Source: Mobula hypostoma
Lineage: Eukaryota
Length of the DNA stretch: 64,000 nt
Assembly: GCF_963921235.1 (NCBI RefSeq)
Contig: NC_086097.1
Coordinates: 112,718,001 to 112,782,000, forward strand
Reading direction: 5' to 3'
The notes beneath the pieces were generated by a model that was not told the DNA's origin, did not search any database, and was given only the letters and a program-made list of their open reading frames with translations. Positions within the stretch are counted from its first letter, which is position 1. Each line of letters starts with the position of its first letter. This document shows positions 451 through 61,415 of the stretch, piece by piece. The translations under genes and the position numbers were made by a program.

Positions 451-1385
451 ATGAGTGTGAGGGCAGTTTGTTCTCGGTGCCGGATGTGGGAGGCCCTGGA
501 GTCTCCAAGCCTCCTGGACGTCCACATCTGCGCCAGGTGCGCCGAGATGCAGCTCCTAAGGGACTGCGTTAGGGAACTGGAGCTGCAGCTCGATGACCTT
601 CGTCTGGTCAGGGAGAGTGAGGAGTTGATAGAGAGGAGTTACAGGCAGGTGGTCACACCGGGGCCACGGAAGGCAGACCAGTGGGTCACGGTTAGGAGGG
701 GGAAGGGGAAGAGTCAGGTAATAGAGAGTACCCCGGTGGCTGTGCCCCTTGACAACAGGTACTCCTGTTTGAGTACTGTTGGGGGGGGGGACAGCTTACC
801 CGGGGGAAGTGACAGTGGCCGCGCCTCCGGCACAGAGTCCGGCCCTGTAGCTCAGAAGGGTAGGGAAAGGAAGAGGAGGGCAGTTGTAATAGGGGACTCA
901 ATAGTAAGGGGGTCAGATATGCGATTCTGTGGACGCAGTCCAGAGACCCGGATGGTAGTTTGCTTCCCTGGTGCCAGGGTCCGGGATATTTCTGATCGTG
1001 TCCAAGATATCCTGAAGTGGGAGGGTGAGGAGCCAGAGGTCGTGGTACATATAGGTACCAATGACATAGGTGGGAAAAGGGAAGAGGTCCTGAAAGGAGA
1101 ATATAGGGAGCTAGGAAGGGAGTTGAGAAAAAGGACCGCAAAGTAGTAATCTCGGGATTACTGCCTGTGCCATGCGACAGTGAGAGTAGGAATGCAATGA
1201 GGTGGAGGATAAATGCGTGGCTGAGGGATTGGAGCAGGGGGCAGGGATTCAAGTTTTTGGATCATTGGGACCTCTTTTGGCGCAGGCGTGACCTGTACAA
1301 AAAGGATGGGTTACACTTGAACCCTAGGGGGACCAATATCCTGGCAGGGAGATTAGCGAGGGCTACTGAGATGACTTTAAACTAG
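451..1385 (+). pseudogene. CR1 ORF1p: Cys/His zinc finger, coiled coil and SGNH/GDSL esterase domain; 1-nt frameshift near 1143
   Basis: Motifs CSRC...HICARC, heptad ELELQLDDLR, VIGDSIV, FPGA, HIGTND, then VVISGLLP and DGLHLN after the frameshift (ORFs 424..1146 and 1167..1385). Confidence 0.9.
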
Positions 1386-4300
1386 AATGATTGGGGGGTG
1401 GGAATCAAATTAAAGAGGCTAGGCGAGAGGAGGTTAATTCACAACAGGGAGATGGGAACCAGTGCAGAGAGACAGAGGGGTGTAAAGTGAGGGTAAAAGC
1501 AAAAAGTAGTCAGGTGAAAAGTAGAAGTGGCAGGCCGACAAATCCAGGGCAAGCATCAAAAAGGACGACTTTTCAACATAATTGTATAAGGGCTAAGAGA
1601 GTTGTAAAAGAGCGCCTGAAGGCTTTGTGTGTCAATGCCAGGAGCATTCGTAACAAGGTGGATGAATTAAAAGTGCAGATTGTTATTAATGAATATGATA
1701 TAGTTGGGATCACAGAGACGGCTCCAGGGTGACCCAGGATAGGAGCTCAACATTCAGGGATATTCAATATTCGGGGGGGATAGACATGAAAGAAAAGGAG
1801 GTGGGGTGGCGTTGCTGGTTAGCGAGGAGATTAACGCAATAGAAAGGAAGGACATAAGCCGGGAAGATGTGGAATCGATATGGGTAGAGCTGCATAACAC
1901 TAAGGGGCAGAAAACGCTGGTGGGAGTTGTGTACAGGCCACCTAACAGTAGTAGTGAGGTCGGAGATGGTATTAAACAGGAAATTAGAAATGTGTTCAAT
2001 AAAGGAACAGCAGTTATAATGGGTGACTTCAATCTACATGTAGATTGGGTGAACCAAATTGGTAAAGGTGCTGAGGAAGAGGATTTCTTGGAATGTATGC
2101 GGAATGGTTTTTTGAACCAACATGTCGAGGAACCAGCTAGAGAGTAGGCTATTCTAGACTGGGTATTGAGTAATGAGGAAGGGTTAATTAGCAATCTTGT
2201 TGTGAGAGGCCCCTTGGGTAAGAGTGACCATAATATGGTGGAATTCTTCTTTAAGATGGAGAGTGACATAGTTAATTCAGAAACAAAGGTTCTGAACTTA
2301 AAGAAGGGTAACTTTTAAGGTATGAGACGTGAATTAGCTAAGATAGACTGGCAAATGACACTTAAAGGATTGACGGTGGATATGCAATGGCAAGCATTTA
2401 AAGATTGCATGGATGAACTACAACAATTGTTCATCCCAGTTTGACAAAAAAATAAATCAAGGAAGGTAGTGCACCCGTGGCTGACAAGGGAAATTAGGGA
2501 TAGTATCAATTCCATAGAAGAAGCATACAAATTAGCCAGAAAAAGTGGCTCACCTGAGGACTGGGAGAAATTCAGAGTTCAGCAGAGGAGGATAAAGGGC
2601 TTAATTAGGAAGGGGAAAAAAGATTACGAGAGAAAACCAGCAGGGAACTTAAAAACTGACTGTAAAAGCTTTTATAGATATGTGAAAAGAAAAAGATTGC
2701 TTAAGACAAATGTAGGTCCCCTACAGACAGAAACAGGTGAATTGATTATGGGGAGCAAGGACATGGCAGACCAATTGAATAATTACTTTGGTTCTGTCTT
2801 CACTAAGGAGGACATAAATAATCTTCTGGAAATAGTAGGGGACAGAGGGTCCAGTGAGATGGAGGAACTGAGGGAAATACATGTTAGTAGGGAAGTGGTG
2901 TTAGGTAAATTGAAGGGATTAAAGGCAGATAAATCCTCAGGGCCAGATGGTCTGCATCCCAGAGTGCTTAAGGAAGTAGCCCAAGAAATAGTGGATGCAT
3001 TAGTGATAATTTTTCAAAACTCTTTAGATTCTGCACTAGTTCCTGAGGATTGGAGGGTGGCTAATGTAACCCCACTTTTTAAAAAAGGAGGGAGAGAGAA
3101 ACCAGGGAATTATAGACCGGTTAGCCTAACATCGGTGGTGGGGAAACTGCTAGAGTCAGTTATCAAAGATGTGATAACAGCATATTTGGAAAGCGGTGAA
3201 ATCATCGGACAAAGTCAGCATGGATTTGTGAAAGGAAAATCATATCTGACGAATCTCATAGAATTTTTTGAGGATGTAACTAGTAGAGTGGATAGGGGAG
3301 AACCAGTGGATGTGGTATATTTGGATTTTCAAAAGGCTTTTGACAAGGTCCCACACAGGAGATTAGTGTGCAAACTTAAAGCACACGGTATTGGGGGTGA
3401 GGTATTGATGTGGATAGAGAATTGGTTGGCAGACAGGAAGCAAGGAGTGGGAATAAACAGGACCTTTTCAGAATGGCAGGCAGTGACTAGTGGGGTACTA
3501 CAAGGCTCAGTGCTGTGACCCCAGTTGTTTACAATATATATTAATGACTTGGATCAGGGAATTAAATGCAGCATCTCCAAGTTTGCGGATGACACGAAGC
3601 TGGGCGGCAGTGTTAGCTATGAGGAGGATGCTAAGAGGATGCAGGGTGACTTGGATAGGTTAGCTGAGTGGGCAAATTCATGGCAGATGCAATTTAATGT
3701 GGATAAATGTGAAGTTACCCACTTTGGTGGCAAAAACAGGAAAACGGATTATTATCTGAATGGTGGCCGATTCGGAAAAGGGGTGGTGCAATGAGACCTG
3801 AGTGTCATTATACACCAGTCATTGAAAGTGGGCATGCAGGTACAGCAGGCGGTGAAAAAGGCGAATGGTATGCTGGCATTTATAGCAAGAGGATTCGAGT
3901 ACAGGAGCAGGGAGGTACTGCTGCAGTTGTACAAGGCCTTGGTGAGACCACACCTGGAGTATTGTGTGCAGTTTTGGTCCCCTAATCTGAGGAAAGGCAT
4001 CCTTGCCATAGAAGGAGTACAAAGAAGGTTCACCAGATTGATTCCTGGGATGGCAGGACTTTCATATGATGAAAAACTGGATGAACTAGGCTTATACTCA
4101 TTGGAATTTAGAAGATTGAGGGGGGATCTGATTGAAACGTATAAAATCCTAAAGGGATTGGACAGGCTAGATGCAGGAAGATTGTTCCCGATGTTGGGGA
4201 AGTCCAGAACGAGGGATCACAGTTTGAGGATAAAGGGGAAGCCTTTTAGGACCGAGATTAGGAAAAACTTCTTCACACAGAGAGTGGTGAATCTGTGGAA

Positions 4301-4421
4301 TTCTCTGCCACAGTAAACAGTTGAGGCCAGTTCATTGGTTATATTTGAGAGGGAGTTAGATATGGCCCTTGTGGCTAAAGGGATCGGGGGTATGGGGGGA
4401 AGGCTGGTACAGGGTTCTGAG
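1376..4421 (+). pseudogene. CR1 ORF2p (APE endonuclease + reverse transcriptase), disrupted
   Basis: ORF pieces 1391..1732, 1806..2147, 2469..3518, 3525..3794 and 3822..4316 are collinear with the near-intact minus-strand copy. Confidence 0.93.
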
Positions 4422-4512
4422 TTGGATGATCAGCCATTATCATACTCAATGGCGGTGCAGGCTCGAAGGGCCAAATGGCCTACTCCTGCACCTATTTTCT
4501 ATGTTTCTATGT

Positions 4513-9101: not shown

Positions 9102-9310
9102 AACACGAGGAATTCTGCAGATGCTGGAAATTCAAGCAACACACATCAAAGTTGCTGGTGAATGTAGCAGGCCAGGCAGCATCTCTAGGAAGAGGTACAG
9201 TCGACGTTTTGGGCCGAGACCCTTTGTCAGGATTAACTGAAGGCAGAGCTGGTAAGAGATCTGGCCTGCCTGGCCTGCTGCATTCACCAGCAACTTTGAT
9301 GTGTGTTGCC
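9102..9310 (-). mobile_element. Penelope-associated short repeat with inverted arm, decayed hammerhead motif and 13-bp TSD
   Basis: tcagtaatccttt occurs at 9089-9101 and 9311-9323. Arm 9136-9179 is inverted at ~9265-9309. Same family as 20177-20418. Confidence 0.75.
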
Positions 9311-13939: not shown

Positions 13940-14612
13940 CTAAGAACATAAGAAACAAGAGCAGGAGTAGGCCATCTGGCCCGTCGAGCCTGCTCCGCCA
14001 TTCAATAAGTTCATGGCTGATTGACCATGGACTCATCTCCACCTACCTGCCTTTTCACCATAACCCTTAATTCCCCTACAATGCAGAAGTCCATCCAACC
14101 TTGTCTTAAATATATTTATTGAGGTAGCCTCCACTGCTTCATTAGGCAGAGAATTCCATAGAGTTACTACTCTCTGGGAAAAGCAGTTCCTCCTCATCTT
14201 CATTCCAAATCTACCTGCCCAAATCTTAAGGCTATGTCTCTTAGTTCTAGTCTCACCTACCAGTGGAAACAACTTTCCTGCCTCTATCTTACCTATCCCT
14301 TTCATAATTTCTTCTCATTCTTCTGAATTCCAATGAGTACAGTCTCAGGCAACTCAATCTCTCCTCATAGTCTAACCTCCTCATCTCTGGAATCAACCTC
14401 CTCTGCACCGCTCCAAAGCCAGCATATCCTTCTTCAAGTAAGGAGACCAGAACTGCACGCAGTAATCCAGGCGTGGCTTCACCAGTACAGTTGCAGCATA
14501 ACCCCTCCCCTCCCAATACCTCTAGCAATGAAGGCCAACATTCCATTTGCCTTCTTGATAGCTTGCTGCACCTGCAAACCAACCTTTTGTGCTTCATGCA
14601 CAAGCACTCCCA
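13940..14612 (-). mobile_element. 5'-truncated CR1 LINE 3' end
   Basis: ORFs 14033..14305 and 14479..14808 give KANGMLAFIARG and FSQRVVTLWNSLP. Tail aagaacataagaaac. Confidence 0.85.
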
Positions 14613-19127: not shown

Positions 19128-20235
19128 GTAATGGAATAAAAGATGAAAATGTTTAAAATGTTTAAAAGTAATAAAGAGAACCCATGTGTAAGGAATGCCG
19201 AGGCCTGGGGAGGACTGATAAACAATCCGGGATTCGGAAGTCTTGCCAACCTACTGGTGGGCTACGCCAAGCTGGTGGACTGGTCAGACAAGCTGGAAGC
19301 CCACAGGGTGAAAATGGGACACCATTTTGTGTCCATGCTGAATGAAGTAGGGATCCCATTTAAGAACAGGAGCCAGAAAGGACTTTTTTGGCCGCTGGTG
19401 GCCATCACGAAGTGACAGTGTGAGATAATTTCACAGAATGAGCAGGAAATTGAAAGCTTTAAAAACAAAGTGGATGAGTTGATTCAGTACTGTATCAACA
19501 TAGGGGAGGTTGCCTGCTTGGCCCAGACCCTGGCTAAAGAAACTGGAGGACAAGGGTACCAAGATAGCCTGTGGTTGTAAAAGTGTGGCAATTAGAGGCT
19601 GCCCAAAAGGCGAATTGGCAACCGGAACAACTTTAATGCTGTGGATAGGTGACCCTGACGCGTGGGGGGGGGGGATATCTGGTTCTGTAGCGAGGATGGG
19701 GAAGAAAGGTGAGATGAGAGTCCTGCAATTCCTCCTCGAAATGACCGCCCTCCCCTTTATGCAGCAGAACCAGTTGTCAGAATATGTTTTGAACTTTGCA
19801 TTTTTTGCAGCCATTTAATGTAACAAAATGGAGTAGACAATCCCCAAGTGCTAAGCTAATATGTTACAATGTATGTCCGTCACCACAAGAATGTGCTTAC
19901 TGAAGGAATAGGTGCCTCCCAGCACCCATTGTACTGAACACTCTGTAAAAATAAGGAAGTAGCAGAGATGAATCAACCACAGATGGCAGATTACAACAAA
20001 TGTATCAGAAGGACTGTACTTTCTGGAAATAGTAACCTTGTCTTGTTCCTATGCATGAAAAGAACACTTTGTAAACAGTGTGTTGGAGGTCTCCTACCAT
20101 CCCTGATGGAAGCAGAGGTGAACTCTCCGTTTGCAAATAATAAAGCCACTTAATAAACATCCGCTTAGTGTGGGTAACATACATCAAAGTTGCTGGTGAA
20201 TGCAGCAGGCCAAGCAGCATCTATAGGAAGAGGTG

Positions 20236-20272
20236 CAGTCGACGTTTCAGGCCGAGACCCTTCGTCAGGACT
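20236..20272 (-). ncRNA. Minimal type I hammerhead ribozyme motif (Penelope-type)
   Basis: Minus strand reads AGTC-CTGACGA-AGGGTCTCGGCCT-GAAA-CGTC-GACT: core boxes, stem I AGTC/GACT, stem II, and a GUC cleavage triplet. Confidence 0.7.
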
Positions 20273-20285
20273 AACTTCGTCCGTT

Positions 20286-20321
20286 AGTCCTGACGAAGGG
20301 TCTTGGCCTGAAACATCGACT
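20286..20321 (+). ncRNA. Second hammerhead motif, with GTC changed to ATC at the cleavage site
   Basis: AGTC-CTGACGA-AGGGTCTTGGCCT-GAAA-CATC-GACT. Confidence 0.55.
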
Positions 20322-21699
20322 GCACCTCTTCCTATAGATGCTGCTTGGCCTGCTGCGTTCACCAGCAACTTTGATGTATGTTGCTTGAATTTCCAGCATC
20401 TGCAGAATTCCTGTTGTTCGCTTAGTGTGGGTACTGTGTTTTTTGTGAGACCTAGTGGAGACATAGTCAACACAGCACCAGCTAAACCAGTGACCACTGG
20501 TGTGGGTTTTGGCCCATTGCTCCTCCCATGGGGCAGGGAGAGAAAGAGGAATGTGGGGTGGATAGCACAGCATTCTCCCTCCAAGACGACACTGCTTAGA
20601 GTTTTCTGCTAAGGAACTGGCAGAAATGAGGTATGGACATTGACAAAAGCTGGGGACGCCTCCAGTCATGTAACCATTGAGGATATGGGATGCAGGTGGG
20701 GGTGGGGGTGGGGTTGTTGGAGCAATTTTATCTGGGGGAAGGGTGCTGTCATCTCATCACATGATAAATAATGCACTGAGAGTTCTGCCTCACTTCCCAA
20801 GTGAATAATGTATCTTTATGGGATCTAGTGACAGAGTTGGTTAAGGAGAGGTACTCCTCCCTTCTCGAATGGGATTTAAAGTCCCAGGAGGAGTGGAGCA
20901 CACTAGAGAAAGGGACTTTGGTCAAACGGGGCTGTGCATGACCGTGGCGGTGACCCACCATTGGATAGTGAACTGGCGGGCTGCTTGGTTAAAACAACAC
21001 AGGTGCCTAATATTTGGTAATGGTTTAACCCTTAAGAGCAAGTTACTTTCCAAAATGGTTTAAAGTACAAATGGTTTGTATATTTCAAATGTTGTGGCTA
21101 CATGTCAATTTACTTGAGTGAGAGAGAGAGAGAGAGAGCGTTTCTGAGGGAGTGAGTGCAAAGGCTGCCATGAGTTTGCTCAATTAATATTGGAGGTTTG
21201 AATTAATCCTCTACTTCAGCGGAAAGGTGACCAATTGAAATATTTTGTTACTCTGTGAAGTAAATTTGCAGGAGCTCTTATCTTTTAAGAGGCTATGCCT
21301 TTAAGATGCTGTGTGAATGTGTTAATGCTTCAAAGGCCATCTTTTCTTTCCCCTTTGTTCTTTGGAAAATATGAAAATTAACTATTTATTCTAAATTTTG
21401 TAGTTACTTGTGAAGGTTCTGATTTTTGTTTGGTCTTATTTGTGTTTTTAGTTTTTTTGCTTTCTCGAGAATTGATTTTAGAGGGAGACACAATTCCACA
21501 TTGGAAATCTGTGCAACTCTATTCTGGACATGTGATGCTCACATGTCAGAGGAAAAGGATTGTTGGAAGATATTATCCAGCTTCTTCAGCTTTGGCGTTT
21601 TGTTTTGGGAGAAATGGGGTGTGGGTAGTCCATTCCAACCAACCTTGCCTCAGAGTTTTGCAAAAGCAATAAAAAACTTCAACCTTAGTAATCTCCAGC

Positions 21700-23714: not shown

Positions 23715-26305
23715 TCCATAAGACCATAAGACCTTAAGACATACGAGTAGAATTAGGCCATCTGGCCCATCAAGTCTGCTCCATTATTTAATCATGGCTG
23801 ATCCTTTTAATTTTCTCCTCAACCCCAGTTCCCCGTCTTCTCCCCGTAACCTTGATGCCATGTCCAATCAAGAACCTAAATCAATCTCTGCCTTAAATAC
23901 ACCCAACAGTCTGGCCTCCACAGCTGCATGTGGCAACAAATTCCATAAATTCACCACCCTTTGGCTAAAGAAATTTCTCCGCATCTCTGTTTTGAAAGGG
24001 CACCCCACAATCCTGATGATGTGCCCTCTTGTCCTACACTTTCCCACCATGGGAAATGTCCTTTCCACATCTACTCTGATAGGCTTTTCAACATTTGAAA
24101 GGTTTCACTGAGATCACCCCCTCATCCTTCTGAATTCCGGCGAGTGTACAGACCCAGAGCCATCAAACCTTCCTCGTAGGATAACCCTTTCATTCCAGAA
24201 ATCATCTTTGTGAACCTCCTCTGGACCGTCTCAAATGCCAACACATCTTTTTTAAGATGAGGGGTCCAAAACTGTTCACAACACTCAAGGTGAGGCCTCA
24301 CCAGTCCTTTATAAAGCCTCAGCATCACATCCTCGCTGTTGTATCCTAGACCTCCTGAAATGAATGCTAACATGGCATTTGCCTTCCTCACCACCAACTC
24401 AAGCTGCAAGTTAATATTCAGGGTGTTCTGCACAATGATTTCCAAGTCCCTTTGCACCTCAGATTTTTGGATTTTCTCCCCGTTTAGAAAATAGTCTGGA
24501 CATTTATTTCTACTACCAAATTGCATGATCAAGCATTTTCCAACATTGTATTTCATTTACGACCTTCTTGCCCATTCTCCTAATCTGTCTAACTCCTTCT
24601 GCATCCTACCCGTTTCTTCAACAATACCTGCCCCTCCACCAAACTTCGTATCATCTGCAAACTTTGCAACAAAACCATCTATTCCATCATCTATCTCATT
24701 TATATACAGCATAAAAAGAAGTGGTCCCAACACTGACCCCTGCGGAACACCACTAGTCACTGGCAGCCAACCAGAAAAGGATCCTTTTATTCCCACTCAC
24801 TGCCTCCTATTAATCAGTCAATGCTCTAACCATGTTATACCTGTAACAATAAATTTTCCTGTAATACCATGGGCTCTTAACTTGGTCAGCAGCTTCATGT
24901 GTGGCACCTTGTCAAAGACCCTCTGAAAGTCCAAATATACAACATCCACAGCATCCCCTTTATCTATCCTACTTGTAATCTCCTCTAAGAATTCCAACAG
25001 GTTCGCTAGGCAGGATTTTCCCTGAAGGAAACCATGCTGACTTTGTACTATCTTGTCCTGTGTAACCAAGTACTCCATCACCTCACCCTTAACAATTGAC
25101 TCTAACATCTTCTAACAATTGACACCGAGGTCAGGCTAACTGGTCCATAATTTCCTTTCTGCTGCCTTCCTTCTTTCTTGAAGAGCAAAGTGACATTTGC
25201 AATTTTCCAGTCTCTGGCACCATGTCACAGTCCCATGATTTTTGAAAGATTATTTCTAATGCCACCACAATCTCTAACACTACCTCTTTCAGAATCCTAA
25301 GGTGTAGTTCATCTGGGTGACTTATGTATCTTTAGGTCTTTCAGCTTTTCTCTTGTAATCATAACTGCACCCACTTCTCTTCCTTCGTACACTACAACAT
25401 CAGACATACTGCTAGCATCTTTCACAGTGAAGGCTGATGCAAAATACTCATTTCATCCTTCCCCTTCTAATTATTTTTTGTTGCTCTCTGTAGGTTTTTA
25501 AAATCTTCCCAATCCTCTATCTTCCCACTAATTTTTGCTTTGTTGTATGCCCTTTCTTTTGCTTTTATAATAGCTTTGAATTCCCTTGTCAGCCATATTT
25601 TACCATTTGAATAGTTCTTCATTTTTGGAATACATATGTCCTGCACCTTCCTCATTTTCACAGAAACGCGTGCCATTGCTGCTCTGCTGACATCCCTGCC
25701 AGGAGCTCCTTCCAATTTACTTTGGCCAACTCCTCTCTCATACCACTGTAATTTCCCTTACTCCACTGAAATATTGCTACATCAGGCTTTATTTTCTCCC
25801 TATCAAATTTCATGTAGAATTCAATCATATCGTGATCACTGGTTCCGAAGGATTCTTTTACCTTAAGCTCCCGAATTGCCAACGGTTCATTACATAACAC
25901 CCAGTCCAGTACAGCTGATCCCCTAGTAGGCTCAATGACAAACTGCTCTAAAAAGCCATCTCTTAGGCACTCAACAAACTCACTCTCTTGAGATCCATTA
26001 CCAACCTGATTTTCCCAATTGACCTGCAAGTTAAAATCTCCCATGACGACCATAACATTGCCTTTTTGGCACGCCTTTTCTATTTCCTGTTGTAATCAGT
26101 GGCCGACCTCCCAGCCACTGTTGAGAGGCCTGTATATAACTGCCATCAACATCCTTTTACCCTTGCAGTTTCTTAACTCAGCCCACAAGGATTCAACGTC
26201 TTCTGATCCTACGTCATACCTTTCTACTGATCTAATGCCATTCTTTACCAGTACAGCCACGCCACTCCCTCTGCCTACCTTCCTATCCCTCTGATATAAC
26301 GTGTA
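23715..26305 (-). mobile_element. 5'-truncated CR1 LINE (distinct, older family)
   Basis: Minus ORFs give GDFN, SDH, QHGF, LDFQRVFDKVPH, PQGSVLGP, FADDTK and FSQRVVNLWN. The tail is (cttatggt)n. Confidence 0.92.
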
Positions 26306-26872: not shown

Positions 26873-29596
26873 CACGAGGACATACCCAATCAAAGCGTTT
26901 CCATAGAGGGCTTCCAGACCGTTCGAGCTGACCGGAATTGCACTGAGAGCGGTAAGCATGAAGGAGGGGGGCTGGCGGTTCTGGTAAACAACACATGGTG
27001 CAATCCTGGTCATATTACGATCAAGGAATGGGTCTATAGCCCAGATATTGAACTTTTTGTTGTTGGACTCCGGCCATATTATTTGCCAAGGGAAATCTCG
27101 CATGCAATTGTGGTTGTTGTGTACATCCCTCCCTCTGCCAACCCGACGTCGGCGTGTAACATCATTTACACCGTCATAGTTAGATTACAAACCCAGCACC
27201 CGAGTGCCCTCATTACCATCTCGGGTGACTTCAACCAGGTTACCATGGCTAGAACACTGCCCAACTTCACGCAGTATGTGAGCTGTACAACCAGAGGGGA
27301 GAGGACTCTGGATTTGATGTACGCTAACGTTAAGGATGCATACAGCTCCTCTCCCCTCCCCCCACCGGGAAGGTCAGATCACAACCTGCTGCATCTAAAA
27401 CCCTGCTACGAGCCTGTGGTGAACAGTAAATCTACAACCTCGAGGACAGTGAGGAAATGGTCGGAGGAGGCTTATGAGGCACTCCAGGGTTGTTTTGAGG
27501 TGACAGACTGGCAGGCACTCTGTGAGTCACATGGAGAGGACTGCAATGTTCCGAAAAGAACTGTCCTTTATTATTCAAATAACAAGCCATGGGTAACAAA
27601 GGACATTAAGGACCACCTGAACGCTAAAAAGAGGGCGTTTAGAGATGGAAATAGGGAGGAGCTCAGGGCAATACAGAGGGACCTGAAAGCCAGGATCAGG
27701 GAGGCTAAAGACAGGTACAGGAGGAGGCTTGAGTGGAAACTCCAGCAGAACAACATGAGAGAGGTCTGGAGTGGGATGAGGACCATCACTGGGTTCCAGC
27801 AAACTAGCAACAGAGGAGCTGAATGCAGTGTGGACAGGGCCAATGAACTTAACCTGTTCTTTAACAGATTTGACATTGTGGCCCCTGCCCATCCCCCACA
27901 TAAGCCATCTGTTGTCGGCCCCCAACCAACACATATTCCACTCTCCCCTCCTACCCCTCCTCACAGTCCCCCAGCCTGCTGTCATGACTATACCCCTTCC
28001 CCACACGAAACCACCACAGTGGGTTTCACAGTTGAACAGGTGAGAAGACAGCTGAAATGTCTCAACCCAAGCAAGGCTGCAGGACTGGATGGTGTCAGTA
28101 CCAGGGTGCTCAAAACCTGTGCCCTCAGCTATGTGGAGTACTTCGCCATGTATTCAACCTGAGCTTAAGGCTCCGGAGGGTTCCTGTGCTGTGGAAGACA
28201 TCCTGCCTCGTCCCTGTGCCAAAGACGCCGCGCCCCAGTAGCCCCAATGACTACAGACCGGTGGCATTGATCTCCCACATCATGAAGACCCTGGAGAGAC
28301 TTGTTCTGGAGCTGCTCCAGCCTACGGTCAGGCCACACTTAGATCCCCTCCAGTTCGCCTACCAGCCCCGACTAGGAGTTGAGGATGCCATCATCTTCCT
28401 GCTGAACCGTGTCTATGCCCACCTGGACAAGCCAGCGAGCACTGTGAGGGTCATGTTTTTTTGACTTCTCCAGTGCATTCAACACCATCCACCCTGCTCT
28501 GCTGGGGGAGAAGCTGACAGCGATGCAGGTGGATGCTTTCCTGGTGTCATGGATTCTTGATTATCTGACTGGCAGACCACAGTACGTGTGCTTGCAACAC
28601 TGTGTTTCTGACAGAGTGATCAGCAGCACTGTGGCTCTACAGGGGACTGTCTTGTCTCCCCTTCTCTTCACCATTTACACCTCGGACTTCAACTACTGCA
28701 CAGAGTCTTGTCATCTTCAGAAGTTTTCGGATGACTCTGCCATAGTTGGATGCATCAGCAAGGGAGATGAGGCTGAGTACAGGGCTACGGTAGGAAACTT
28801 TGTCACATGGTGTGAGCAGAATTATCTGCAGCTTAATGTGAAAAAGACTAAGGAGCTGGTGGTAGACCTGAGGAGAGCTAAGGTACCGGTGACCCCTGTT
28901 TCTATCCAGGGGGTCAGTGTGGACATGGTGGAGGATTACAAATACCTGGAGATATGAATTGGCAATAAACTGGACTGGTCAAAGAACACTGAGGCTGTCT
29001 ACAAGAAGGGCCAGAGCCATCTCTATTTCCTGAGGAGACTGAGGTCCTTTAACATCTGCCAGACGATGCTGAGGATGTTCTGCGAGTCTGTGGTGGCCAG
29101 TGCTATCATGTTTCCTGTTGTGTGCTGGGGCAGCAGGCTGAGGGTAGCAGACACCAAAAGAATGGACAAACTCATTCGTAAGGCCAGTGATGTTGTGGGG
29201 ATGGAACTGGACTCTCTGACGGTGGTGTCTGAAAAGAGGATGCTGTCCAAGTTGCATGCCATCTTGGACAATGTGTTCCATCCACTACATAATGTACTAG
29301 GTGGGCACAGGAATACATTCAGCCAGAGACTCTTTCCACCGAGATGCAACACAAAGCGTCATAGGAAGTCATTCCTGCCTGTGGCCATCAAATTTTACAA
29401 CTCCTCCCTTGGAGGGTCAGACACCCTGAGCCAATAGGCTGGTCCTGGACTTATTTCATAATTTACTGGCATAATTTACATATTACTATTTAACTATTTA
29501 TAGTTTTATTACTATTTATTATTTTTTATGGTGCAACTGTAACGAAAACCAATTTCGCCCGGGATCAATAAAGTATGACTATGACTATAACTATGT
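26873..29596 (+). mobile_element. Rex1/Babar-clade LINE, 5'-truncated, APE+RT with frameshifts
   Basis: VYIPP, GDFN, LDLMYAN, SDH; DYRPVALISHIMKTLERL, LDPLQFAYQP, QGTVLSPLLFTIYT, KFSDDSAIVG. The 3' end reads aataaag(tatgac)n. Confidence 0.9.
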
Positions 29597-33189: not shown

Positions 33190-36145
33190 TTGCACCTGAT
33201 TTGAAAAGTAAGCTGGGCCTGTTGGGACCTCCTGCAGATAGAGCAGTATGAATGGGCCCAGGTCAGTGATCTGCTCCCCTTGTATGATATGGAAGATCTG
33301 GGAGGCCTCCCGTCTCCCTGATAGCTACATGTACAAGAGGTACATCCAGCCACAACTCCTTACGGACTGTGCTGGGAAAGTGATGCTGGATCTGACCTAC
33401 AGCTCGTTTGGGAGAATGAGAAGGCGATGGATAAGAGCTACAGAGAGGTAAGTCGCTGGGTGACTGTTGGAATGGGCAGCCAATGCAGTGTACTTGCGTG
33501 ATCAATAACAGTTAGACCATTTTGGATACTGCTGGGGGGTGGGTGAACTGCCAGATGAAAGCCACGGTAACCAGATCTGGCTCTGTGGCGCAGAAGGGAA
33601 GGGGGAGAAGAGGACAGGAGGACAGTTGTGGTGATAGGGGATTCAATATTTACAGGAACAGATAAGAGATTCTGTTGATGAGGAAGAGACACCGGGTTGG
33701 TGTGTTGTCTCTCAGGTGCCAGGATCGGGGGCGCCTTAGATTGGCTCCACAGCAGTCTTAAACGGAAGGTGAGCAGACAGAATCTGTGGTACATATTGGT
33801 ACCAATGACATAATCCCCCCTGTTAGACTGTTTAAGGTAACTTATTTTAAAATTTATTTTCTTACTTCTCTTCTAATATCATATATCTGTGCACTTGTAA
33901 TGCTACTGTGACACTAAAGTATCTAGCTATCTATCATAGATAGATAAAGGGAAGAAGTCATGAAGAAAGAACACAGGGAGCCAGGTAGGAAGTTGAAAAG
34001 CAGGAGCTCTGGATTGCAATCTCTGAGAAGTAAGCTCTGGATTGTCGCTTGTGGCATACACAAGTGAGAGTAAGAATAGAATGATCTGGCAATTGAATGT
34101 GGAGTGGTCAGCATTTCGGATTTGTGGATCACTGGGATCTCTTCTGGGGAAAGGATGATCTGTACAAAATTGGCAGGTTACACCTGGACTTGAGGGGGAC
34201 AAATATCCTTGTGGGTAGGTTTGCTCGAACTATTGGAGAAGGTTTAAAGTAGATTGGCAGAGGGATGGGAACCAGGGTGATAGGTCAGAGGATGGGCCAG
34301 CTGGTGTAAAGGTAGATGCAGCTTATGGACAGATAGGCAGTGGACAGGACAAAATTGCAGAGGGATGGGTTGAAATGTGTCAATTTTAATGCGAGAAATA
34401 TCAGGAACAAGGGTTATGAACTTACAGCATGGAGAGTTAACTATCAGAAGGACAGGAATGGCTGCTGGATATGCTGAGGTTTCCAAAAGGATAGAGAGGG
34501 AGGTGAAAGAGGGGAGGAAGTGACACTGCTAGTCAGAGATAGCATCACAGCTGTAGAAAGGCAGAGTGTCATGGAATCATCATCTACTGAGTCAGTGTGG
34601 CTGAAAGTAAGAAAGAGAAAGAGAGAAATCACTCTATTGGGAGTATTTTATAGACAAACCCCCCCACCCCACCCCCCCCGATAGCAACAGAGACATGGAG
34701 GAACATATCGGGAGGCATATTTTGGAAAGGTGCAAAAATAACAGGGTGACTTCAACTTCCCTAACATTGATTGTCACCTTTTTTTATTGCAAAAGACTTA
34801 GCTGTGACAGAATTTGTTGGGTGCATCCAGGACTCAATATACTGGATCTAGTACTTGGCAAAAAACCTGGTCAGGTGACGGATCTTTCGGTGAGTGAGGA
34901 TTTCAGAGTCAGTGTCAACAACGCCCTGACCTGTACCATAGCCTTGGACCAGAGATAGGTGTCAACAGTGTGGGAAAGTATTTAATTGCAGGAGGGGAAA
35001 TTATGACGCTGTTAGGAACTAGGGGCATAAGCTGGGAATAGATGTACTTAGAGAAATTCACAATGGAAATGTGGAGGTTGTTTTTTTGGAAGCACTTACA
35101 TGGGATTCCATATAGGCTTATCCTGTTGAGGCAGGGAAAGGATAGTAGGCTGAAGGAATTATAGTCAAGAGGAAGAAAGAAGCATACTTACGATGTAGGA
35201 AGCAAGGAATCAGCCAAGGCTCTATTTTTACAAGGTAGGTAGGATAAAGTTTAATAACGGACTGAAGAGAGTTAGAAGGGGATATGAGAAGACCTTGGCA
35301 AGTAGGATTAAGAAAAACCCCAAGATGCCTTACACACATGTGAAGAACAGGAAGATGTCTAGAGTGCTGCCGATGTGGTAGTAGAGGAGAGTACTTTGCA
35401 GACGAAAAGAATGAACCAAGCTGTTGAACGAGACCAGTATGGTCAACAAAATCCAATATGGGGCCTGCAGCAAATATTACATCAGCCAGACTGGGAGAAA
35501 ACTACCCACAAGGATCCATGAACACTACCTGGCTGTAAACTCTCCTTAGTTTCTACCCATGAAGATTGAGAGGGGCACAAATTTGTCTGGGCATCAGTGA
35601 AAGTCAGGGTGCTTTCATATCTCCAGTCAAGGTGGTGTTAGTGTACAACGCTCCCTCAGTTGACATCTTCCAGAAAGCAAACAAAAGTAGCTCTGTGTAA
35701 GATGAGAAGTGTTTAAAATGTTTAGAATTTTTTTCTGCGACTTGATGAACACCTCAAACCTTCCTTTATCAGGTTCCATAATAAAAAAAAAGAGAGGTAT
35801 AGATAGAGTAAATGCGAGCAGGTTTTTCCACTGAGGTTGGGTGGGACTACAACCAGAGGTCATGGGTTAAGGGTGAAAGGTGAAATATTTAAGAGGAACA
35901 TGAGAGAAGCTTCTTCACTCAGAAGGCCGTGAGAGTGTGTAATGAGCTGACAGCACAAGCGGTGTGTGCAAGCTCGATTTCAGTGTTTAGAAGAAGTTTG
36001 GATTGGTACATGGATTACTCGAGGTATGGAGAACTATGATACTGGTGCAGGTTGATGGGAGTAGGCAGTTTAAATAGCTCAGCACAGACTAGATGGGCCA
36101 ATAGGCCTGTTTCTGTGCTGTACACATCTGATTCTATGACTCTAA
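33190..36145 (+). mobile_element. Old, internally deleted CR1 (ORF1 esterase, APE remnants, 3' tail) with nested inserts
   Basis: VIGDS (33631), HIGTND (33791), FVDHWDLFW, ggtttaaagtag junction, GDFNFP, and a 3' end ctgtttctgtgctgta...ttctatgactcta. Confidence 0.75.
35436..35606 (+). pseudogene. Penelope-like element GIY-YIG endonuclease fragment
   Basis: KIQYGACSKYYISQTGRKLPTRIHEHYLAV / SLVSTHED*EGHKFVWASVKV. Confidence 0.75.
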
Positions 36146-47034: not shown

Positions 47035-50017
47035 ATAGTGACGGTAAGATGGCAGTTGAATGCATGGCTGAGGAATTGGTGCAGGGGGCAGGGTTTTAGA
47101 TTTCTGGATCACTGGGTTCTCTTCTGGGGAAGGTGGGACCTGTACAGATTGGATGGGTTGCACCTGAACTCGAGGGTGAGCAATATCCTTGCAGGTAAGT
47201 TTGCTAGCATAGATCGGGAGGGTTTAAACTAATTTGCAAGGGTGATGGGCTCGGAGTGATAGAGCAGTGGAAAAAGTGCATGGAGTAAAGCCAGATCTAA
47301 CATATAGAGAGGCTTTGAGGAAAGAGAAACAGAATAAAGGGTGTAAAGGTAGTAACGTAGAAGGGCTAAAGTGTGTGTACCTCAATGCAAGAAACCTCAG
47401 GAACAAAGGTGATGAACTGAGAGCTTGGATACATACATGGAATTATGATATAGTGGCCATTACAGAGACTTGGCTGGAACCAGGGCAGGAATGGATTCTC
47501 AATATTCCTGGATTTCAGTGCGTTAAGAGGGATAGCAAGGGGGAAAAAAGGGGAGGAGGGGTGGCATTACTGGTCAGGGATACTATTACAGCGACAGAAA
47601 GGTTGTGTAATGTAGCACAATCCTCTTTTGAGTCAGTATGGGTGGAAGTCAGGAACAGGAAGGGAGCAGTTACTCTATTGCGAGTATTCTATAGGCCCCC
47701 TGGTAGCAACAGAGATACAGAGGAGCAGATTGGGAGGCAGATTTTGGAAAGGTGCAAAAATAACAGGGTTGTTATCATGGGTGACTTTAACTTCCCTAAT
47801 ATTGATTGGCACCTGATTAGTTTCAACGATTTAGATGGGGCAGGAACATTTTTAATTGGGGAAGGGCAAATTATGAGGCTATAATGCGAGAACTTGTGGG
47901 TGTGAATTGGGATGATGTTTTTGCAGGAAATGTACTATGGACAGGCGGTCGATATTTAAGGATCTCTTGCTGGATGTTAGGGATAAATTTGTTCCGGTGA
48001 GGAAGATAAAGAATGGGTAGGGTGAAAGGATCCATGGGTGACAAGTGAGGTGGAAAATCTAGTCAGGTGGAAGAAGGCAGCATACATGAGGTTTAGGAAG
48101 CAAGGATCAGATGGGTCTATTGAGGAATATAGGGAAGCAAGAAAGAAGCTTAAGAAGGGGCAAGAAGGGGGCATGAGAAGGCCTTGACGAGTAGGGTAAA
48201 GGAAAACCCCAAGGCATTCTTCAATTATCTGAAGAACAAAATGATGGCAGAAGTGAAGGTAGGACCAATTAGAGATAAAGATGGGAAGATGTGCCTGGAG
48301 GCTGTGGAAGTGAGTGAGACCCTCAATGAATACTTCTCTTTGGTATTCACCAATGAGAGCGAACTTGATGACGGTGAGGACAATATCAGTGAGGCTGATG
48401 TTCTGGAGCATGTTGACATTAAGGGACAGGAGGTATTGGAGTTGTTAAAATACATTAGGATGGACAAGTCCCCTGGGCCTGATGGACTATTCCCCAGGCT
48501 GTTCCACGAGGCGAGAGAAGAGATTGCTGAGCCTCTGGCTAGGATCTTTATGTCCTCGTTGTCCACGGGAATGGTACTGGAGGATTGGAGGGAGGCGAAT
48601 GTTGTCCTCTTGTTCAAAAAAGGTAGTAGGGATAGTTCGGATAATTATAGACCATTGAGCCTTACAGCTGTGGTGGGAAGGCTGTTGGAAAAGATTCTTA
48701 GAAATTGGATCTCTGGGCATTTAGAGAATCATAGTCTGATCAGGGATAGTCAGCATGGCTTTGTGAAGGGAAGATCGTGTCTAACAAGCCTGATGGAGTT
48801 CTTTGAGGAGGTGACCAGGCATATAGATGAGGCTAGTGCAGTGCATGTGATCTACGTAGATTTTAGTAAGGCATTTGACAAGGTTCCACACAGTAGGCTT
48901 ATTCAGAAAGTCAGAAGGCATGGGATCCAGGGAAGTTTGGCCAGGTAGATTCAGAACTGGCTTGCCTGCAGAAAGCAAAGGGTCGTGGTGGAGGGAGTAC
49001 ATTCGGATTGGAGGGTTGTGACTAGTGGTCTCCCACAAGGATCGGTTCTGGGACCTCTACTTTTTGTGATTTTTATTAACGACCTGGATGTGGGGGTAGA
49101 AGGGTGGGTTGGCAAGTTTGCAGACAACACAAAGGTTGGTGGTGTTGTAGATAGTGTAGAGGATTGTCGAAGGTTGCAGAGAGACATTGATAGGATGCAG
49201 AAGTGGGCTGAGAAGTGGCAGATGGAGTTCAACCTGGAGAAGTGTGAGGTGCTACACTTTGGAAGGACAAACTCCAAGGCAGAGTACAAAGTAAATGGCA
49301 GGATAATTGGTAGTTTGGAGGAGCACAGGGATCTGGGGGTGCATGTACACAGATCCCTGAAAGTTGCCTCACAGGTGGATAGGGTAGTTAAGAAAGCTTA
49401 TGGGGTGTAAGCCTTCATAAGTTGAGTGATAGAGTTTAAGAGTCGCGATATAATGATGCAGCTCTATAAAACTCTGGTTAGGCCACACTTGGTGTACTGT
49501 GTCCAATTCTGGTTACCTTACTATAGGAAGGATGTGGAAACATTGGAAATGGTACAAAGGAGATTTACCAGGATGCTGCCTGGTTTAGAGAGTATGCATT
49601 ATGATCAGAGATTAAGGGAGCTAGGGCTTTACTCTTTGGAGAGAAGGAGGATGAGAGGAGACATGGTCGATGTATACAAGATATTAAGAAGAATAGATAG
49701 AGTGGACAGCCAGCACCTCTTCCCCAAGGCACCACTGCTCAATACAAGGGGACATGGCTTTAAGGTAAGGGGTGGAAAGTTCAAGGGGGATATTAGAAGA
49801 AGGTTTTTTACTCAGAAAGTGGTTGGTGCGTGGAATGCACTGCCTGAATCAGTGGTGGAGGCAGATACACAGTGAAATTTAAGAGACTACTAGACAGGTA
49901 TATGGAGGAATTTAATATGGGGGGTTATATGGGAGGCAGGGTTTAAGGGTTGGCACAACATTGTGGGCCAAAGGGCCTGTAGTGTGCTGTACTAGTCTAT
50001 GTTCTTTGGTCTATGTA
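47035..50017 (+). mobile_element. CR1 LINE (third family): ORF1 esterase end plus ORF2 with an internal deletion near 47845
   Basis: DGLHLN...EGLN*; NARNLRNK, ITETW, GDFN; NYRPLSLT, DFSKAFDKVPH, PQGSVLGP, FADNTK; tail ctatgttctttggtctatgt. Confidence 0.93.
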
Positions 50018-58156: not shown

Positions 58157-61100
58157 TATAGAAACATAGAAACATAGAAAATAGGTGCAGGAGTAGGCCA
58201 TTCGGCCCTTCGAGCCTGCACCGCCATTTATTATAATCATGGCTGATCATCCAATTCAGAACCCCGCCCCAGCCTTCCCTCCATACCCCCTGATCCCCGT
58301 AGCCACAAGGGCCATATCTAACTCCTTCTTAAATATAGCCAATGAACTGGCCTCAACAGTTTCCTGTGGCAGAGAATTCCACAGATTCACCACTCTCTGT
58401 GTGAAGAAGATTTTCCTAATCTCGGTCCTAAAAGGCTTCCCCTTTATCCTCAAACTGTGACCCCTTGTTCTGGACTTCCCCAACATCGGGATCAATCTTC
58501 CTGCATCTAGCCTGTCCAATTCCTTTACGATTTTATACGTTTTAATCAGATCCCCCCTCAATCTTCTAAATTCCAACGAGTACAAGCCCAGTTCATCCAG
58601 TCTTTCTTCATATGAAAGTCCTGCCATCCCAGGAATCAATCTGGTGAACCTTCTTTGTACTCCCTCTATGGCAAAGATGTCTTTCCTCAGATTAGGGGAC
58701 CAAAACTGCACACAATACTCCAGGTGTGGTCTCACCAAGGCCTTGTACAACTGCAGTAGTACCTCCCTGCTCCTGTACTCGAATCCTCTCGCTATAAATG
58801 CCAGCATACCATTCACCTTTTTCACCGCCTGCTGTACCTGCATGCCCACTTTCAATGACTGGTGTATAATGACACCCAGGTCTCGTTGCACCTCCCCTTT
58901 TCCTAATCGGCCACCATTCAGATAATAATCTGTTTTCCTATTTTTGCCACCAAAGTGGATAACTTCATGTTTATCCACATTAAATTGCATCTGCCATGAA
59001 TTTGCCCACTCACCCAACCTATCCAAGTCACTCTGCATCCTCTTAGCATCCTCCTCACAGCTAACACCGCCACCCAGCTTCGTGTCATCCGCAAACTTGG
59101 AGACGCTGCATTTAATTCCCTCATCCAAGTCATTAATATATATTGTAAACAACTGGGGTCCCAGCACTGAGCCTTGCGCTACCCCACTAGTCACCGCCTG
59201 CCATTCCGAAAAGGTCCCGTTTATTCCCACTCTTTGCTTCCTGTCTGCTAACCAATTCTCCATCCACATCAATACCTTACCCCCAATACCATGTGCTTTA
59301 AGATTGCACACTAATCTCCTGTGTGGGACCTTGTCAAAAGCCTTTTGAAAATCCAAATATACCACATCCACTGGTTCTCCCCTATCCACTCTACTAGTTA
59401 CATCCTCAAAAAATTCTATGAGATTCGTCAGACATGATTTTCCTTTCACAAATCCATGCTGACTTTGTCCGATGATTTCACTGCTTTCCAAATGTGCTGT
59501 TATCACATCTTTGATAACTGACTCCAGCAGTTTCCCCACCACCGACGTTAGGCTAACCGGTCTATAATTCCCCGGTTTCTCTCTCCCTCCTTTTTTAAAA
59601 AGTGGGGTTACATTAGCCACCCTCCAATCCTCAGGAACTAGTCCAGAATCTAACGAGTTTTGAAAAATTATCACTAATGCATCCACTATTTCTTGGGCTA
59701 CTTCCTTAAGCACTCTAGGATGCAGACCATCTGGCCCTGGGGATTTATCTGCCTTCAATCCCTTCAATTTACCTAACACCACTTCCCTACTAACATATAT
59801 TTCGCTCATTTCCTCCATCTCACTGGACCCTCTGTCCCCTACTATTTCTGGAAGATTATTTATGTCCTCCTTAGTGAAGACAGAACCAAAGTAATTATTC
59901 AATTGGTCTGCCATGTCCTTGCTCCCCATAATCAATTCACCTGTTTCTGTCTGTAGGGGACCCACATTTGTCTTTCCCAGTCTTTTCCTTTTTACATACC
60001 TATAAAAGCTTTTACAGTCAGTTTTTATGTTCCCTGCCAGTTTTCTCTCATAATCTTTTTTCCCCTTCCTAATTAAACCCTTTGTCCTCCTCTGCTGAAC
60101 TCTGAATTTCTCCCAGTCCTCAGGTGTGCCACTTTCTCTGGCTAATTTGTATGCTTCTTCTTTGGAATTGATACTATCCCTAATTTCTCTTGTCAGTCAC
60201 GGGTACACTACCTTCCTTGATTTATTCTTTTGCCAAACTGGGATGAACAATTGTTGTAGTTCATCCATGCAACCTTTAAATGCTTGCCATTGCATATCCA
60301 CTGTCAATCCTTTAAGTGTCATTTGCCAGTCTATCTTAGCTAATTCACGTCTCATACCTTCAAAGTTACCCCTCTTTAAGTTCAGAACCTTTGTTTCTGA
60401 ATTAACTATGTCACTCTCCATCTTAATGAAGAATTCCACCATATTATGGTCACTCTTACCCAAGGGGCCTCTCACGACAAGATCGCTAATTAACCCTTCC
60501 TCATTGCTCAAAACCCAGTCCAGAATAGCCTGCTCTCTAGTTGGTTCCTCGACATGTTGGTTCAAAAAACCATCCCGCATACATTCCAAGAAATCCTCTT
60601 CCTCAGCGCCTTTACCAATTTGGTTCACCCAGTCTACATGTAGATTGAAGTCACCCATTATAACTGCTGTTCCTTTATTGCACACATTTCTAATTTCCTG
60701 TTTAATACCATCTCCGACCTCACTACTACTGTTAGGTGGCCTGTACACAACTCCCACCAGCGTCTTCTGCCCCTTAGTGTTACGCAGCTCTACCCATATC
60801 GATTCCACATCTTCCCGGCTTATGTCCTTCCTTTCTATTGTGTTAGTCTCTTCTTTAACCAGCAACGCCACCCCACCTTCCCTTCCTTCATGTCTATCCC
60901 TCCTGAATATTGAATATCCCTGAATGTTGAGCTCCCATCCTTGGTCACCCTGGAGCCATGTCTCTGTGATCCCAACTATATCATAATCATTAATAACAAT
61001 CTGCACTTTCAATTCATCCACCTTATTACGAATGCTCCTTGCATTGACACACAAAGCCTTCAGGCGCTCTTTTACAACTCTCTTAGCCCTTATACAATTA

Positions 61101-61415
61101 TGTTGAAAAGTGGCCCTTTTTAATGCTTGTCCTTGATTTGTCGGCCTGCCACTTTTACTTTTCTCCTTAGTACTTTTTGCTTCTACCCTCACTTTACATC
61201 CCTCTGTCTCTCTGCACTGGTTCCCATCTCCCTGTTGTGAACTAACCTCCTCACGCCTAGCCTCTTTAATTTGATTCCCACCCCCCAACCATTCTAGTTT
61301 AAGGTCACCTCAGTAGCCCCCGCTAATCTCCCTGCCAGGATATTGGTCCCCCTAGGATTCAAGTGTAACCGCTCCTTTTTGTACAGGTCACGCCTGCGCC
61401 AAAAGAGGTCCCAAT
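58157..61415 (-). mobile_element. Young CR1 LINE, same family as 139-4512, truncated within ORF1
   Basis: Reverse complement is highly similar to 1262-4512. Tail (atagaaac)n. Confidence 0.96.
58256..61288 (-). pseudogene. CR1 ORF2p (~1010 codons) with one in-frame stop at 60199-60197
   Basis: ORFs 60197..61288 and 58256..59965 share a frame. I translated 60196-59966 by hand and found no stop. The TGA corresponds to TGG (HPWLT) in the other copy. Confidence 0.93.

Follow-up and report, generated by a model that had tools for sequence, protein, structure and literature searches.

Among long interspersed nuclear elements (LINEs) with two open reading frames (ORFs), the Dictyostelium elements TRE5-A and TRE3-A, which are non-long-terminal-repeat retrotransposons of the apurinic/apyrimidinic endonuclease (APE) type, are stated in a review's figure legend to require a −1 frameshift for ORF2 (PMC5911963); a frameshifting LINE therefore has precedent. 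SART1 and mammalian L1 also have a bicistronic mRNA from which ORF2 is needed at a low level (passages of PMC5972666), and ORF2 expression in two-ORF LINEs has been described as unclear (passage of PMC3708506). We analysed a window of 64,000 nucleotides (nt) from Mobula hypostoma (contig NC_086097.1, positions 112,718,001 to 112,782,000, forward strand), and focused on the ORF1/ORF2 junction of its CR1 LINEs. In the chicken genome, no interspersed repeat is more abundant than CR1 (passage of PMC11835228), and the host element class of this junction is vertebrate CR1 with a type IVB ORF1, consisting of a zinc finger/leucine zipper plus an esterase (CR1 subgroup 7 in a passage of PMC4120745). 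The junction resembles viral −1 frameshift signals, as these are described in parts of PMC5009743 and PMC4373837, in the type and phase of its heptamer, in a replicase that lies in the −1 frame, and in a stop codon directly 3′. We concluded that the conserved junction most likely serves as an unusual type of −1 frameshift signal, and that programmed −1 ribosomal frameshifting at the heptamer probably yields an ORF1–ORF2 fusion protein.

A tblastn search revealed only four esterase-ORF1 3′ ends in the window, in copies that we call A to D. All four carry TTAAA plus a stop codon in X XXY YYZ phase with ORF1, and two of the four have the exact heptamer TTTAAAC. They lie where the original prediction had placed them: TTTAAAC TAG at 1376–1385 (A), TTTAAAC TAA at 47223–47232 (B), TTTAAAG TAG at 34243–34252 (C), and CTTAAAC TAG at 61303–61294 on the minus strand (D). 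The motif TTTAAAC is common by itself, with 29 sites in the window when both strands are counted; therefore, only its position and phase are informative. The prediction that ORF2 occupies the −1 frame was also borne out, as copies A and D read from the heptamer into the endonuclease in that frame, which opens with F/L-K-L-E and has the endonuclease Asn as its codon 87. The features concerned are as follows.

451..1146, plus strand: 5′ part of copy A ORF1, with a Cys-rich/coiled region and the start of the SGNH esterase; frame broken near 1140
1143..1385, plus strand: 3′ part of copy A ORF1, the C-terminal half of the esterase, ending DGLHL...TLN-stop; Lipase_GDSL_2 match with E 4.7e-7, under the curated cut-off
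1376..1382, plus strand: slippery heptamer T TTA AAC, in X XXY YYZ phase with ORF1
1383..1385, plus strand: ORF1 stop codon, directly 3′ of the heptamer
1386..1615, plus strand: linker of about 76 codons in the −1 (ORF2) frame; the other two frames have 5 and 8 stops
1388..1390, plus strand: TGA in the −1 frame, private to copy A; copy D has TGG
1393..1402, plus strand: G-rich tract, 10 nt 3′ of the heptamer; candidate stimulator, no pairing partner found
1487..1489, plus strand: linker codon 38, GTG in A and D and ATG in a subfamily; possible reinitiation start
1616..4420, plus strand: decayed ORF2 of copy A, with APE endonuclease and reverse transcriptase; domain matches come from its homolog, copy D
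4421..4512, plus strand: 3′ untranslated region (UTR) of copy A, ending in short TTTCTATG repeats
34100..34660, plus strand: copy C junction, old and decayed; −1 frame open through the linker, indel before the endonuclease
47041..47884, plus strand: copy B junction, from a divergent family; 1-nt loss near 47250, then the endonuclease frame
58164..61415, minus strand: copy D, 5′-truncated, 95% identical to A

Copy A is a decayed, nearly full-length CR1 LINE on the plus strand, from 451 to about 4512, whose ORF1 runs from an ATG at 451 to the stop at 1383–1385. The 5′ part of this ORF1 is 87% identical to a 311-amino-acid Mobula protein, and the nearest ORF1 proteins are those of rays (Mobula 87%, Leucoraja 72–75%). 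The esterase shows the motifs GDS, GTND and DGLHL and has close homologs with PF13472; the Lipase_GDSL_2 matches on both ORF1 pieces fall under the curated cut-off because the gene is split. In ORF2 of copy D, PF03372, PF14529 and PF00078 (APE endonuclease and reverse transcriptase) all score over the cut-off. CR1 elements are marked by short 8-mer repeats at the 3′ end, the lack of poly(A), and frequent 5′ truncation. Copies A and D end in TTTCTATG 8-mer repeats without poly(A), and D is 5′-truncated. The domains and the 3′ end thus assign the element to CR1 LINEs with an esterase ORF1, and a quick esterase tree, drawn without named references, groups the ORF1s of rays, eel, reptiles and birds together.

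The window contains other repeats besides. Further 5′-truncated CR1 pieces without a junction are found at 25316–26305 and 13945–14576, both on the minus strand, and two other decayed elements, which on visual inspection of their translations resemble LINEs of different types, lie on the plus strand at 26873–29437 and 52962–54149. At 20165–20612, near-identical reading frames on both strands point to two inverted copies of a short repeat, arranged head to head, and text related to this repeat is also present near 9256, 17400 and 62900.

Three of the four window junctions carry a defect that bears on reading in the −1 frame, and two of these had been raised as caveats in the original prediction. 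The TGA at 1388 in copy A is real, yet it is private to that copy because position 1390 is G in more than 99% of contig depth in two runs (99.7% in X1, 99.4% in X2). The 1-nt deletion that copy B needs is visible in the B–C alignment as a loss near 47250, and past this gap the endonuclease frame of B is the −1 frame of C. Copy C is also out of phase by one indel, which lies elsewhere than that of B. The −1 frame of copy D is open for 370 codons, with its first Met at codon 216 (MGDFN). The claim that the first ATG of ORF2 lies deep in the endonuclease stood for the window, where copy B shows the same MGDFN motif and the first in-frame ATG of copy A ORF2 is at 2019–2021, well inside the endonuclease; it proved not to be general outside the window.

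To describe variation at the level of the ray family, contigs of runs X1 and X2 (13,100 and 12,274 pieces) were aligned to positions 1230–1760, where depth means contig word depth and not copy count. Two raw-read runs were uninformative, X21 yielding 4 reads and X22 none. No variant was present at 1372–1389 among those listed (40 of 58). Indels of at least 4% depth in X1 and X2 were absent from 1230–1718, and the only one lay at 1719, where copy A is broken. Two of the 12 loose ends listed (609 more exist) show a second family running into TTTAAA. Among linker variants, 3 of 13 were synonymous, a bias that is uninformative, as expected of a loose linker.

Junctions outside the window were sought in metagenome and prokaryote contigs. 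The scan used a degenerate pattern of the esterase motif, which lies about 400 nt before the junction, and selection was thus independent of the heptamer. An esterase ORF1 was present in at least 17 of 32 metagenome loci among the matches listed; 11 of the 17 end ahead of the junction and 6 span it. None was found in 20 prokaryote-genome loci, and scanning of viral contigs and plasmids found no relatives. Four of the six spanning junctions are bird-like (L002, L014, L016, L024), and two come from a distant group (L017, L021). The heptamer is TTTAAAC in five of the six and GTTAAAC in the other, and TAG or TAA follows in five, with AAG in L014. Five of the six can be read in the −1 frame without a stop from the heptamer into the endonuclease; L014 has an indel. 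These loci are partly decayed, with a break near the end of ORF1 in L002 and L021 and within the endonuclease in L024. At L002 the −1 frame (756–2370) has no stop over more than 500 codons, as far as the locus extends, and ORF1 has a one-base shift just ahead of its end.

The original prediction had suggested testing whether conservation of the heptamer extends to synonymous positions, and it does so across the ten junctions of the window and the outside loci: the exact heptamer is present in 7 of 10, the other three have one mismatch, and the codons are TTA in 10/10 and AAC in 9/10. TTAAA is invariant in the alignment, whereas the columns of the 105-nt stretches that were aligned average 55% identity. 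In pooled ORF1 codon usage, 13 of 89 Leu codons are TTA, 12 of 30 Asn codons are AAC, and 255 of 933 third positions are T; on these values, the chance of an exact heptamer at an x-Leu-Asn end is about 0.016 per junction; the ten junctions are related, and thus do not represent ten independent trials. Seven of the ten lead in direct −1 phase to the endonuclease, across linkers of 29, 32, 40, 76, 76, 80 and 85 codons, and six of these seven linkers lack any stop, the seventh being that of copy A with its private TGA. For six lineages, the chance of this phase with no stop before the first possible AUG is about 7e-8 if they are independent, a figure that is overstated because three of the lineages are bird-like and related. 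The junctions show an in-phase heptamer, an open −1 downstream ORF, and synonymous-site conservation, three of the features that characterize a −1 frameshift element, and the junction feature is real and deeply conserved. A further regularity concerns codon 5 after the heptamer, which is ATG, GTG, TCG, GCG or TGG by family in L002, L016, L017, L021, L024 and the window copies; its mostly G-ending form may reflect CpG decay or be part of the signal.

Protein evidence came from the C-terminal tails of ORF1. LN ends 23 of 25 close ORF1 homologs that have the DGxH motif. A larger set was taken from the best 150 of 9,130 profile matches, of which 90 had the motif and a tail of 20–45 amino acids, giving 81 distinct tails; the profile was built from LN-ending proteins, and its ranking favours LN tails. 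Asn ends 56 of the 81 (background 5%), as LN in 40, GN in 9, KN in 2, EN in 2, SN in 2 and FN in 1. The residue ahead of LN has purine-ending codons only in one of 40 cases (background 19%, P 0.002), Gln precedes GN in 9 of 9, and Ser precedes KN in both cases. The nine GN tails are related, with eight placed in one clade. These LN, QGN and SKN tails fit U_UUA_AAC, G_GGA_AAC and A_AAA_AAC, respectively, the last two heptamers being proposed from protein sequences; all three are among four heptamers named as shiftiest for mammalian ribosomes in a section of PMC5009743. Named carriers of LN-ending tails are rays, sawshark, eel, lizard, snake, monitor and birds.

Some tails and gene models stand apart from this pattern. 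Among tails with the DGxHP motif, one of 7 ends in LN. Proteins P0174, P0185, P0187, P0195–P0197 and P0213 make up an esterase-ORF1 clade with good support in which the tails lack a terminal Asn, and provide a natural control group; ORF2 of this clade may be expressed another way. Of 11 bird gene models in which an endonuclease start can be detected, nine contain the −1-frame peptide S-F-K-L, and these nine come from one stork species; a frameshifted turtle copy has the peptide as well. Long bird "fusion" proteins were considered as proof of a real fusion and discounted, as they are automatic gene models. A search for long fusion models in the QGN group found none, which is weak evidence. Lastly, P0022, P0028 and P0224 are CR1-type ORF1 proteins filed as a Pseudomonas aeruginosa hydrolase, ribosomal protein S24 and prefoldin subunit 5, labels that likely stem from contamination or mis-annotation.

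From this evidence we propose the following mechanism. Translation of the CR1 mRNA would start at the ORF1 AUG, and most ribosomes would terminate at the UAG or UAA right behind U UUA AAC and release the ORF1 protein. A minority would shift back one base, with the tRNAs on UUA and AAC re-pairing with UUU and AAA. These slipped ribosomes would bypass the stop and read the 29–85-codon linker into the endonuclease and reverse transcriptase, giving an ORF1–ORF2 fusion at a set low ratio in the manner of Gag-Pol. The G-rich tract 7–10 nt downstream would probably make the ribosome pause, through a G-quadruplex or a bound protein and not through a hairpin. The sequence, phase, conservation and open linker of the junction are observations, and they make −1 frameshifting the simplest account because an invariant in-phase heptamer has a stop behind it and a variable linker kept in −1 phase; slippage, fusion, ratio and the role of the G tract are what we would predict from them.

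The G-rich tract that the original prediction had noted after the stop is indeed conserved, and begins 7–10 nt past the heptamer. Its G-run score lies at the 96th to 99.9th percentile of the element in 9 of 10 junctions, percentiles that are inflated because the local value is the best of eight windows. A protein reason for the tract is not excluded, because it also encodes Gly residues. Folding of the downstream sequence gave no conserved hairpin, with z below −2 in one of 20 folds, and no conserved first stem of a hairpin or pseudoknot was seen 5–9 nt 3′ of the heptamer, with no pseudoknot predictor applied. We therefore do not file the junction as a classical structure-stimulated element.

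In sum, the proposed fusion by −1 frameshifting gained from the heptamer, the variable linker kept in phase, and the co-varying tails, but lost the notion of a generally AUG-less ORF2 and the expected structural stimulator. Several results weigh against it. Folding z-scores ranged from −3.2 to +1.6 (copy A +0.7 and +1.6), RNAalifold found 0 consensus pairs in 9 sequences, duplex scans revealed no shared long-range partner (the outside loci being too short for the 3′ UTR), and ViennaRNA predicted a G-quadruplex in only 2 of 10 junctions. A stop after the HIV-1 heptamer lowered frameshifting by about 70% (passage of PMC4373837). Three of ten junctions (B, C and L014) need an indel for phase. The GN and KN groups are represented by protein sequences, and 25 of the 81 tails from the best 150 of 9,130 matches lack an Asn end, so that the site is not universal among esterase LINEs. 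Start codons count on the same side: an in-frame AUG lies in the linker or first endonuclease strand of all five in-phase outside junctions, at codon 5 (L002), 23 (L016), 29 (L017), 39 (L021) or 90 (L024); the stork models have a Met 9 residues ahead of the endonuclease; and at position 1487 A accounts for 16% of depth in X1 and 95% in X2, a variant that makes linker codon 38 an in-frame ATG in place of GTG. The subfamily with this ATG dominates X2 at 1487, and offers a natural test case for reinitiation versus frameshifting. An independent ORF2 start is thus missing from window copies A, B and D and present in the five outside junctions, the stork models and the ray subfamily, so that "ORF2 without AUG" is not general.

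The original prediction had named an in-frame ATG in the consensus ORF2 as refuting, and its presence in some lineages keeps alive an alternative in which ORF2 is made by termination-reinitiation, or by L1-type initiation at an AUG or near-cognate codon of the linker. UUUAAAC, stop and G tract would then be a coupling signal with no fusion produced, or families might differ in mode. Besides the AUGs of the five in-phase outside junctions, this account draws on codon 38 of the ray family (GTG or ATG, with A at −3), on the ATG, GTG or TTG at codon 5 or 6 in A, D, L002, L021 and L024, on the precedents of UAAUG coupling in SART1 and of L1 (passages of PMC5972666), on L1 initiation that is said to be AUG-independent (passage of PMC5009743), and on the failure to find a structural frameshift stimulator. 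Yet no start codon keeps a constant position, codons 4–20 of L016, L017 and C include neither an AUG nor a near-cognate codon, and in L024 up to 85 codons ahead of the first AUG are open and in phase. An in-frame AUG falls within 5 codons of the heptamer in only 1 of 10 junctions (L002), so a start adjoining the stop is not a feature of the site, and the TURBS core UGGGA (termination upstream ribosome-binding site) is found 40–90 nt upstream of the stop in none of the ten. Reinitiation also leaves unexplained why ORF1 ends co-vary as slippery heptamers. We consider it unlikely, though a serious contender.

Three other explanations fare far worse. If ORF1 protein simply needed a C-terminal Leu-Asn and ORF2 protein began elsewhere, the heptamer would be a by-product of protein constraint or shared ancestry; Leu-Asn is kept at the protein level in 23 of the 25 close homologs, and the profile behind the larger set of tails was itself built from LN-ending proteins. 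But TTA and AAC are fixed at synonymous positions (10/10 and 9/10) while flanks have diverged, tail length varies from 24 to 39 amino acids, and Leu changes to Gly or Lys jointly with the preceding residue, so that protein constraint as the only cause is very improbable and largely refuted already. Expression of ORF2 from a spliced RNA, with an acceptor just ahead of the heptamer, might be read from the automatic stork gene models that enter the ORF2 frame at S-F-K-L. The ray junctions and L017/L021, however, have no AG or pyrimidine tract there, and splicing should leave intron-less genomic copies, whereas joints within 1230–1760 had a depth of at most 106 versus about 1e6 among those listed; we give this explanation even less credence. 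Transcriptional slippage, in which one added base would let standard decoding of the altered RNA yield the fusion, would likewise need an open linker in phase, but the runs here are only 3 nt long, and an added base would pass to daughter insertions, of which none of at least 4% depth appeared among the variants listed at the site. It is the most remote of the explanations considered.

Programmed −1 frameshifting at the heptamer thus remains our preferred reading. A bolder extension holds that the −1 cassette arose before rays and bony vertebrates diverged, is the standard means of making the esterase-CR1 replicase, has swapped among the three strongest heptamers, and is driven by the G tract as a G-quadruplex or through a protein (a host factor or ORF1 protein); this is possible but doubtful. 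Full-text literature searches, whose reach did not include the founding CR1 papers, returned no report of CR1 frameshifting. The word "frameshift" is absent from the main texts of PMC4120745, PMC3905857, PMC4316615 and PMC11303007, and "CR1" is absent from the first 300,000 of the 449,034 characters of PMC5009743. Readable supplement files of published papers held no ORF1/ORF2 junction sequence, their matches being to the reverse transcriptase 3′ region or flanking DNA. If frameshifting is true, it would answer how ORF2 is expressed in a large group of LINEs, by a mechanism unlike that of L1; the working CR1 replicase would bear the ORF1 esterase at its N-terminus, and CR1 ORF2 annotations from an internal ATG would be wrong. 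It would also mean a frameshift signal without the usual RNA structure and, should the G-tract cassette hold as well, a natural G-tract-stimulated frameshift that makes a Gag-Pol-like esterase-endonuclease-reverse transcriptase protein.

Compared with known systems, the CR1 junction differs from viral signals in having only a G tract where these have a pseudoknot or hairpin 5–9 nt downstream, and in belonging to a LINE and not a virus. Closer in this respect are arterivirus frameshifting, stimulated by nsp1beta with poly(C)-binding protein, and frameshifting at synthetic G-quadruplexes, which likewise use a stimulator other than a hairpin, with a longer spacer; parts of PMC5009743 give 11–14 nt for arterivirus and cardiovirus frameshifting, and state that natural use of G-quadruplexes in frameshifting was not known in 2016. 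Relative to the arterivirus case, the CR1 motif is G-rich and its binding protein is putative. TRE5-A and TRE3-A, as that single figure legend presents them, are of another clade and have another type of ORF1. In SART1 and L1, a separate ORF2 protein is made from a start near the stop, whereas CR1 has no conserved start and, in its place, a conserved slippery site.

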